A stretch of 36,460 nucleotides of DNA from positions 1 to 36,460 of IMG/VR virus record IMGVR_UViG_2534681674_000020, one strand, 5' to 3'. The translations under genes and the position numbers were made by a program. Within the stretch, counting starts at the first letter, position 1, and each line of letters begins with the position of its first letter. Below, piece by piece: positions 9,403 to 10,215 of this stretch. The DNA comes from a virus. Lineage: Duplodnaviria > Heunggongvirae > Uroviricota > Caudoviricetes. A model generated the notes under the pieces. That model did not search any database. It was not told the origin of the DNA and was given only the letters and a program-made list of their open reading frames with translations.

Positions 9403-9618
9403 ATGTACCAGATGGAAAAAATCACAACAGGTGTGTCATACACCACGTCAGCGGTGGGGACGGGATACTGGTTACTGCAGCTGCTGGACAAAGTCTCTCC
9501 GTCCCAGTGGGTGGCGATAGGTGTGCTGGGGAGTCTGCTGTTTGGCCTGCTGACGTATCTGACTAACCTGTATTTCAAAATTAAAGAGGACCGTCGCAAG
9601 GCTGCCCGGGGAGATTAG
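9403..9618 (+). CDS. S: Class II holin, phage 21 S-like pinholin with dual start (Met1/Met4)
   Basis: 71-aa product [11 protein letters not shown]...[51 protein letters not shown] is near-collinear with S21. Two in-frame Met codons three codons apart are typical of an antiholin/holin pair. Confidence 0.85.
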
Positions 9619-9621
9619 GTG

Positions 9622-10179
9622 ATGAACCATGAAGAAATGAATCAGCGCTTCAGTCGTCTGGAAAATGAAATTGCTGAACTGAATAAAAAACTGTCGACGC
9701 TGATGCCTTCTGAAGATGAAAAAAAACGCCGCGATGAGCAGTTTGCTGCGTTTGACGATTATTGTCGGAAAGTGATGAGCAGAAATCTCTCAGAGTGTTT
9801 CAGTATTCATAATGATAATTTCAGTGAGCTGGAATGGGAGTGTAACCGGCCATCCTTTGTTGTATCCGGTGATGCTGGGAAAATAACCATCTCAGAAAAT
9901 GGGAAAGTAACACCTCCATCGCACCAGCACAGTGAGGAGCTCATTGAATTTGCCATTGATTACCTGAAGAACAATAAAAAGCAGGGGCTGATGAAGCGCG
10001 TTGGCCGTTGCATGGGATATCTTCAGGTAGCCGCTGAGATTGAAGCGCTGGCCAGTGGTGCTGATAAGGATGCAATTGTGCGGGAGGCTCTTCTTCGTGA
10101 TTTTAATACTCCACCCTTTAAAAAAGTGCCGGCTTACTGGCTTCATCCGGGGCTGACTTATCTTAAAGTGCGTATTTAG
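9622..10179 (+). CDS. Uncharacterised protein inserted between holin and endolysin (about 185 aa, N-terminal coiled-coil)
   Basis: Long ORF tightly coupled to the holin stop (GTG 9619 / ATG 9622). GC content is noticeably lower than the flanking lysis genes. No recognisable motif. Confidence 0.6.
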   Translation: MNHEEMNQRFSRLENEIAELNKKLSTLMPSEDEKKRRDEQFAAFDDYCRKVMSRNLSECFSIHNDNFSELEWECNRPSFVVSGDAGKITISENGKVTPPSHQHSEELIEFAIDYLKNNKKQGLMKRVGRCMGYLQVAAEIEALASGADKDAIVREALLRDFNTPPFKKVPAYWLHPGLTYLKVRI

Positions 10180-10215
10180 TGGGCCAGGGACAGCGGCTGA
10201 ATATTTAATATATCC

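Follow-up and report, generated by a model that had tools for sequence, protein, structure and literature searches.

A mosaic accessory gene of the YdfR/phrog_1085 family behind the pinholin gene of a lambdoid Escherichia coli prophage

What is the small gene that separates the holin and endolysin genes of the prophage recorded as IMGVR_UViG_2534681674_000020, and does it take part in lysis? We analysed positions 1 to 36,460 of that IMG/VR record (36,460 nucleotides (nt), the window), which is the late region of a lambdoid, Shiga toxin (Stx) phage-like E. coli prophage. A preliminary description had pointed to a gene of roughly 185 amino acids (aa) and low GC content, coupled to the holin stop and situated between holin and endolysin, and had proposed a lysis-timing modulator or an accessory (defence or anti-defence) moron. 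The sequence, the Shine-Dalgarno (SD) arrangement and the GC contents, overall and at third codon positions (GC3), agree with that picture of the gene. The gene lies within the interval it was assigned (9403-10215), but this also takes in the holin gene and a spacer; the open reading frame (ORF) itself is 9622-10179. We call it the slot gene, and the holin and endolysin genes S and R. It is a dispensable, 'moron'-type accessory gene of the late operon that belongs to the YdfR/phrog_1085 family and is placed behind the holin translationally. The features of the junction are:

9403-9618, + strand: S21-type class II (pin)holin gene, 71 aa, dual start Met1/Met4 (MYQMEK); Pfam PF04971, expectation value (E) 8.5e-33; phrog_9876 and phrog_20
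9608-9613, + strand: Shine-Dalgarno-like GGGGAG within the final holin codons, 8 nt 5' of ATG 9622
9622-10179 (stop 10177-10179), + strand: slot gene, 185 aa, B+C form of the YdfR/phrog_1085 family (modules listed below), from its phrog_1085 match
10180-10215, + strand: 36-nt AT-rich spacer without a purine-rich SD, preceding the endolysin start
10216-10500, + strand: R21-type signal-anchor-release (SAR) endolysin gene, 5' 95 codons only, with a Gly/Ala-rich SAR segment and E35/D44/T50; Pfam PF00959, E 2.4e-08
10501-11806, + strand: IS3-family insertion sequence (IS) element, IS629/IS1203 type, 1306 bp; delimited by blastn against the near-identical relative L001, with HTH_Tnp_1 and rve domains

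The holin stop codon (TAG, 9616-9618) is followed by GTG at 9619 and by ATG at 9622, the slot-gene start, which lies 3 nt past the stop. RefSeq places the start of the identical protein WP_001364645.1 ('hypothetical protein') at the same ATG, and the S-x-R region of its source strain is 100% identical to the window. The prophage of strain OkiPb01713 likewise carries a 100% identical copy of the gene. Translational coupling of the slot gene to the holin is plausible from this arrangement. The slot gene has a GC content of 44.8%, against 52.8% for the window, and a GC3 of 43.5%, against 65.3% for the holin gene and 64.2% for the endolysin gene. Assignment of the cassette to the phage 21 type was sound, as judged from the PF04971 match and MYQMEK start of the holin and from the Gly/Ala-rich segment and E35/D44/T50 in the N-terminus of R. 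No promoter of its own was seen for the slot gene in a crude consensus scan, and neither the slot gene nor a convergent partner gene (phrog_1853) that accompanies it in relatives yielded a usable candidate in promoter and terminator scans.

The slot protein matches the phrog_1085 hidden Markov model at E 7.8e-113, with residues 1-185 on profile positions 117-296 of 296. A collection of 5.8 billion proteins yielded 170 homologues, and alignments of these reveal a mosaic family with interchangeable modules A, A2, B, B2 and C. The coordinates given for modules B and C are those of the window, and their secondary structure is predicted by AlphaFold2 (AF2):

Module A: DUF1327 (PF07041), ~75-100 aa, the whole of K-12 Qin YdfR
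Modules A2 and B2: short beta-hairpin-like inserts
Module B, 9622-9798, + strand: N-terminal antiparallel helical hairpin/coiled coil, aa 1-59, acidic, GC 41%
Module C, 9844-10176, + strand: conserved basic domain, aa 75-185, three strands and four helices, outside Pfam
Architecture A+A2: commonest slot form, in 20 of 74 cassettes
Architecture A+B: 170 aa, PhiR12_2
Architecture A+B+C: 287-296 or 329 aa, annotated 'YdfR family'
Architecture A+B2+C: 268 aa, Stx2 phage 86 gp05
Architecture B+B2+C: 213 aa, Stx2a phage Stx2_12E129
Architecture B+C: 185 aa, this window

Module B is shared at 57-92% identity with slot proteins that are otherwise different. The DUF1327 model has no match in the slot protein and matches 6 of the 34 family members scanned; the NCBI name 'YdfR family' applies when that module is present. 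YdfR of the K-12 cryptic prophage Qin (P76160), whose gene lies next to essQ and rrrQ, occupies the same slot as the window gene, between an S21-type holin gene, which it directly follows, and the endolysin gene. K-12 YdfR lacks B and C, whereas the slot protein lacks DUF1327; the two have no sequence in common, and are related only by position and, as family members, through chimeric relatives. Such chimeras are numerous, and fuse DUF1327 to modules 86-88% identical to the slot protein (e.g., P0006 and P0033). Other members of phrog_1085 (PHROGs v4, function unknown), such as phage 86 gp05 and the slot protein of Stx2_12E129, have a C module 83-92% identical to that of the window protein and the same gene position. 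Databases already list the window protein as a 'hypothetical protein', and the slot family could be seen from K-12 onwards; the element is therefore not of a new kind. The B+C form, without the domain that gives the family its name, is a new architecture variant of a known, uncharacterised family.

The preliminary description treated the gene as an unusual insertion, given the adjacency of S and R in phage 21-type cassettes, and suggested a survey of S-R junctions in related prophages. In that survey the arrangement proved to be common. Of 80 IMG/VR loci with a holin at least 93% identical to that of the window, 74 contain both S and R; a gene of the same slot family lies between them in 43 (~58%), and S abuts or overlaps R in 31. 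Among the occupied slots, 20 have the A+A2 form, 10 A+A2+B+C and 5 B+C, with other combinations making up the rest (a B+C tally of 8 counts the window, L001 and L085 too). A scan with the C domain identified 114 loci and, among the best 80, the E. coli-type loci with flanks all have the order holin, family gene, R. Thus, the idea of an accessory gene stands insofar as the gene is dispensable (31 of 74 cassettes are empty), is compositionally foreign and has no catalogued motif, but it is not a one-off insertion. Equally, the alternative that it is a widespread conserved lysis-cassette component with a known function holds for 'widespread' but not for 'known function'.

Comparison of empty and occupied cassettes indicates how the gene is accommodated. 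In empty cassettes, R starts 1-8 nt after the S stop or overlaps it, and the same GGGGAG/GAGAGG element serves as its SD (e.g., ...CGGGGAGAGTAAGCTGATG at the R start of L050). In occupied cassettes, the slot gene takes the holin-embedded SD, and R stands behind an AT-rich leader (...AATATTTAATATATCCATG) without a purine-rich SD (10180-10218 in the window; junctions of L005-L084). The slot gene thus appropriates a ribosome-binding site that lies within the 3' end of the holin gene. Slot occupancy may change the holin to endolysin ratio.

The family has a narrow distribution. An exhaustive HMMER search of 1.84 billion representatives returned only 41 proteins at E <= 1e-3, and a contig scan with one genome per species found the family in Escherichia and Shigella only; a profile search added the Salmonella enterica proteins P0159 and P0162. 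On these searches, it is confined to lambdoid prophages of Escherichia, Shigella and Salmonella. The C domain of the distant members is 27-41% identical to the slot protein over the alignment, and most of these members also have an N-terminal domain that is related to DUF1327 by profile-profile comparison (hhalign probability 91.7%, E 7.6e-7). Because distant members keep both a DUF1327-related N-terminus and the C domain, the ancestral architecture is A...C, and the window copy lost, or never received, module A. We rejected the possibility that it is a recent simple deletion derivative of an A+B+C gene, because, on our reading of the alignment, the first 20 residues of module B agree with A+B+C forms at only about half of the positions, and 14 distinct alleles share the B+C start.

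Gene order differs in the distant relatives. In Salmonella and others, the homologue precedes a class II holin gene; it lies between Q and S, within ~0.2-0.7 kb upstream of S. Thus, the tie is to the late operon and lysis neighbourhood rather than to the S-R junction as such. The homologue adjoins a hicAB pair in two of these cases. In L089 (2780-3434) and L176 (3156-3809), the hicA/hicB toxin-antitoxin pair is antisense between the Q antiterminator gene and the target homologue, in a region that collects accessory genes.

The coiled-coil N-terminus noticed beforehand is reproduced by the AF2 model, which has two long module B helices (residues 3-27 and 31-59) with a predicted local distance difference test (pLDDT) score of 74-92. 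An acidic linker (aa 55-75) follows, with residues 55-67 at pLDDT <50, and then the C domain at pLDDT 83-97, with three strands (79-97) and helices at 101-117, 123-144, 151-161 and 178-184. The whole-model pLDDT was 82.9 after distant homologues had been added to the alignment; with the 18 E. coli sequences only, an alignment that was too shallow, it was 54.7. The calculated isoelectric points (pI) are 5.4 for module B, 4.05 for the linker and 9.3 for the C domain. The protein is hydrophilic (grand average of hydropathy -0.64; maximum Kyte-Doolittle 19-residue mean 0.75) and has no transmembrane segment, and we predict that it is soluble and cytoplasmic. A spanin or a membrane antiholin was considered and ruled out, given that there is neither a transmembrane segment nor a lipobox.

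Two motifs characterize the C domain, KRxGRCMGxLQxAAEIE and (D)NPPFK..P..W..PG..YLK.RI. Invariant across 34 sequences are G128, L134, Q135, A137, P165, K167, W173, P176 and Y180, and the GRCMGxLQ, PPFK and W..PG..YL motifs are common to the slot protein and the distant Salmonella and metagenomic members. No catalytic-type residue set (Asp, Ser, Cys, or more than one His or Glu) is conserved in the family. Profile, AlphaFold and Foldseek comparisons had been suggested for a protein without a recognisable motif, and these revealed its membership of phrog_1085 and otherwise left that description in place. The slot protein matches no Pfam family at E <= 0.1, the C domain is unmatched by Pfam in all 34 family members scanned, and an NCBIfam scan of the slot protein and relatives gave no informative match. 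Foldseek of the model against PDB and BFVD found nothing at E <= 1e-3, and profile searches of PDB sequences, with the whole family or the C domain alone, found coiled-coil noise only. PADLOC v2 has no family at E <= 1 for the slot protein, and chance-level matches only for the relatives and the partner gene; no nuclease, NTPase or other effector-type domain was identified in Pfam scans of the slot protein and family. The C domain is an uncatalogued domain with a confident predicted model and without a fold or sequence relative in PDB or BFVD.

The slot gene is a real, intact gene under purifying selection. Of 5426 complete E. coli genomes, 249 contain at least 80% of it and 811 have some match. 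The ratio of nonsynonymous to synonymous substitution rates (dN/dS) against other 185-aa copies is 0.17-0.40 for the whole gene, with synonymous divergence (dS) up to 0.17, and 0.14-0.42 for the last 64 codons against more diverged forms. There are 14 distinct intact alleles of the 185-aa form, with the conserved start MNHEEMNQRF... A chance ORF is ruled out by the conservation and dN/dS. The concern that the ORF might be disrupted in related genomes applies to some of them, in that 15 of 64 distinct S-to-C alleles (fetched loci) are frameshifted or truncated and one frameshifted allele is recurrent, but the window ORF is intact. Many of the genomes in the sampled match list share an allele ~99% identical to nt 116-558, with no coding sequence annotated there; the one such genome examined (E. 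coli Ec15103, L173 2553-3443) has a frameshifted A+B+C copy annotated 'YdfR family protein, incomplete'.

The cassette around the gene is in a different state. The endolysin gene is cut after codon 95, at the boundary 10500/10501, a truncation that the preliminary description did not mention. Homology to the intact relative L001 stops at 10500 and restarts at 11807 (L001 position 7505). The intervening IS element has an ALIL frameshift pseudoknot at 10834-10950, and related records annotate an 'IS3-like element IS1203 family'. The window lacks about 2.3 kb of L001 (5202-7504), which includes the distal two-thirds of R, three small ORFs and the Rz 'lysis protein' (Rz/Rz1), among other sequence. 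Neither a complete endolysin gene nor Rz/Rz1 spanin genes are therefore found downstream of the slot gene in the window. The exact R::IS junction was searched for in complete E. coli genomes, and no identical arrangement was found. We conclude that the lysis cassette of this prophage is dead, although its slot gene is intact. With the endolysin cut by an IS element and the spanin genes deleted, a lysis role for the slot gene would be moot in this genome.

In many relatives, the place of the spacer (10180-10215) holds a convergent gene of ~105 aa, phrog_1853, which adjoins the C-domain gene at its 3' end or overlaps it there. Representative copies are:

L002 3654-3968, - strand: phrog_1853
L003 3358-3672, - strand: phrog_1853
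L091 4785-5102, - strand: phrog_1853
L174 585-902, - strand: phrog_1853
L175 436-759, - strand: phrog_1853

It is present in 44 of 50 loci that contain B2 versus 0 of 31 B+C loci, and tblastn confirmed its absence from the window. It follows the gene of the phage 86 protein, which differs from the window protein in having A and B2 rather than B. Salmonella has it too, and it accompanies the two metagenomic homologues that diverge most, with gene overlaps of 33 and 18 nt. Its product has no Pfam match, and only chance-level PADLOC matches. From its arrangement, phrog_1853 may form a two-gene module with the C-domain gene.

What might such a protein do? A gene that is dispensable, module-shuffled, compositionally different and often pseudogenised is better regarded as an accessory gene than as a core lysis component. 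It resembles the lambdoid late-operon morons (stx, nanS-p, bor, lom), which are likewise dispensable, compositionally distinct and carried on the Q-dependent late transcript beside the lysis genes, and the Salmonella homologue occupies the stretch between Q and S that in Stx phages contains stx. Classical morons, however, often bring their own promoter and terminator, of which none was found for the slot gene, coupled as it appears to be to the holin. Literature on ydfR, DUF1327, essQ/rrrQ and Stx lysis cassettes included only two relevant items, a report on an interaction with RNase E and a high-throughput envelope screen. K-12 YdfR (i.e., module A alone) binds the N-terminal catalytic half of RNase E in two-hybrid and co-purification experiments, via residues 1-72, and it co-purifies with RNA (PMC13232886). 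Because the full-length or ancestral architecture carries DUF1327, which in K-12 YdfR binds RNase E and RNA, RNA turnover would be the likeliest field of activity of the family.

We therefore tentatively favour, at somewhat less than even probability, an accessory cytoplasmic binding protein of the late operon, from a family that acts on RNA turnover. The slot gene would be expressed solely from the late, Q-dependent transcript, with its translation coupled to that of the holin, and its product would stay in the cytoplasm, as it has no signal sequence or transmembrane segment. It would act in a binding or adaptor role rather than as an enzyme, given that no catalytic-type residues are conserved. 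The helical hairpin (module B) could mediate self-association and the basic C domain (pI 9.3) target binding. The family's field of action could be RNA turnover late in infection, as the RNase E and RNA link of module A weakly suggests, and a copy without the docking module A, such as that of the window, would retain at most the C-domain half of the activity. Several points weigh against this explanation. The RNase E evidence concerns a module that is absent from the slot protein, the C domain's only tie to RNA is its basic charge, and overproduction of ydfR barely alters the transcriptome (PMC13232886). Further, the gene adjoins a class II holin gene in all contexts seen, which fits a lysis role at least equally well, and the promoter scan was a crude consensus search. 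Finally, phrog_1853 accompanies many relatives, including the most divergent, with a two-gene logic that an accessory, RNA-directed role does not cover.

The main rival explanation is a modulator of lysis timing, acting either by antiholin-like binding to the cytoplasmic tails of S21-type holins or in cis, where takeover of the SD would lower R relative to holin. The family gene always adjoins such a holin gene, across a 3-nt gap after S in E. coli and ~0.2-0.7 kb upstream of S in Salmonella and others; R uses the holin SD in empty cassettes and has no obvious SD in occupied ones; and the N-terminal module is a two-helix hairpin. Antiholins (T4 RIII, which would be the functional parallel, and the S21 71 isoform) resemble the slot protein in being a small soluble helical module expressed late alongside the holin, and the window holin has the dual-start arrangement, but there is no sequence or fold relation to the slot protein. 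The Keio ydfR mutant scored in an envelope-leakiness screen (PMC3879167), a result that could just as well reflect polarity on the endolysin gene downstream. Despite these points, we consider a lysis-timing role rather unlikely. The gene is missing from ~40% of cassettes whose holins are nearly identical, its modules are freely shuffled and lost (A-only and B+C forms included), which is odd for a protein fitting one conserved holin, and its order relative to S differs in distant relatives. Adjacent genes in mosaic phages can also persist together through linkage alone.

The presence/absence polymorphism, the module shuffling and the low GC could also mark a defence, counter-defence or superinfection-exclusion moron, a late protein that blocks a host abortive-infection sensor or a rival phage and that works with phrog_1853 in relatives. 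Two further features fit this: the location in the moron region of the late operon, beside hicAB in the distant relatives, and the convergent partner, which is conserved and overlaps the 3' end in divergent homologues. Yet neither the protein, its relatives nor the partner has a PADLOC match, there is no nuclease, NTPase or other effector-type domain, and this copy lacks the partner. As the gene has no promoter of its own, expression in the lysogen is unlikely, and a dN/dS below 0.4 is not that of a diversifying gene; we regard this explanation as improbable. We give as little credence to a functionless or decaying remnant, the N-terminally truncated relic of an A...C gene hitch-hiking between two selected genes. 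The window copy does lack module A of the ancestral architecture and the partner gene, disrupted alleles are frequent (15 of 64, with the frameshifted allele recurrent in the sampled match list) and the surrounding cassette is already dead. The 185-aa form nevertheless starts at a conserved site of its own, coupled directly to the holin stop, and occurs in inducible Stx phages, while its 14 intact alleles show the dN/dS (0.17-0.40) and synonymous divergence (up to 0.17) given above. Most doubtful of all is that the C domain is a new fold or family that, with phrog_1853, constitutes a two-gene regulatory module of pinholin/SAR-endolysin cassettes (for example, a cytoplasmic RNase E-linked or holin-binding timer), of which B+C would be the stand-alone version.

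In almost all Stx phages, lysis and therefore the release of toxin are under the control of pinholin/SAR-endolysin cassettes (PMC8136144). The family considered here fills the junction of holin and endolysin genes in over half of the related cassettes that we examined, and the only study of it is a two-hybrid report that dealt with another module. Should it modulate the timing of lysis, the dosage of endolysin or the stability of late RNA, burst size and Shiga toxin release would be affected; if it does nothing, it would be a clean example of a hitch-hiking moron. The contributions of the present analysis are a module map of the family, an uncatalogued C domain with a confident model and a conserved convergent partner, and the takeover of the holin-embedded ribosome-binding site is also noteworthy.

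The wider neighbourhood of the cassette in the window is as follows:

3324-3890: Q antiterminator gene
4462-5538: DNA methylase gene
Upstream of the DUF1378 gene: nanS-p-like esterase/DUF6645 gene, split
8834-9013, + strand: DUF1378 small late-operon gene (Pfam)
9054-9326, + strand: DUF826 small late-operon gene (Pfam)
12247-12858: terminase Nu1 gene, after the lysis cassette

The DUF1378-DUF826 order is also found in L001 and L002, and is the usual context in Stx-phage-like late regions. The nanS-p-like gene (DUF1737, SASA esterase and DUF6645) is broken into the overlapping ORFs 6734-7747 and 7636-8697, and its counterpart in L001 is annotated as frameshifted. Between the methylase and esterase genes, an antisense ORF of 108 aa (6133-6459, - strand) matches L001 833-1159, which is annotated as anti-adapter protein IraM. 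The gap between the DUF826 and holin genes (9327-9402) contains a GC-rich inverted repeat and a T run (GGCCATCAG...CTGCTGGCCTTTTTC); this is terminator-like, and a Q-modified polymerase would read through it. A hairpin of a similar kind was scored in L002 (2714-2743). At the far end of the prophage, positions 34854-35840 encode a 328-aa protein with a full-length Peptidase_M85 domain (E 1.4e-112), an NleC-like type III effector protease of the kind that degrades NF-kB p65. This protein indicates a prophage of the effector-carrying type ('exchangeable effector locus') found in enterohaemorrhagic and enteropathogenic E. coli (EHEC/EPEC).

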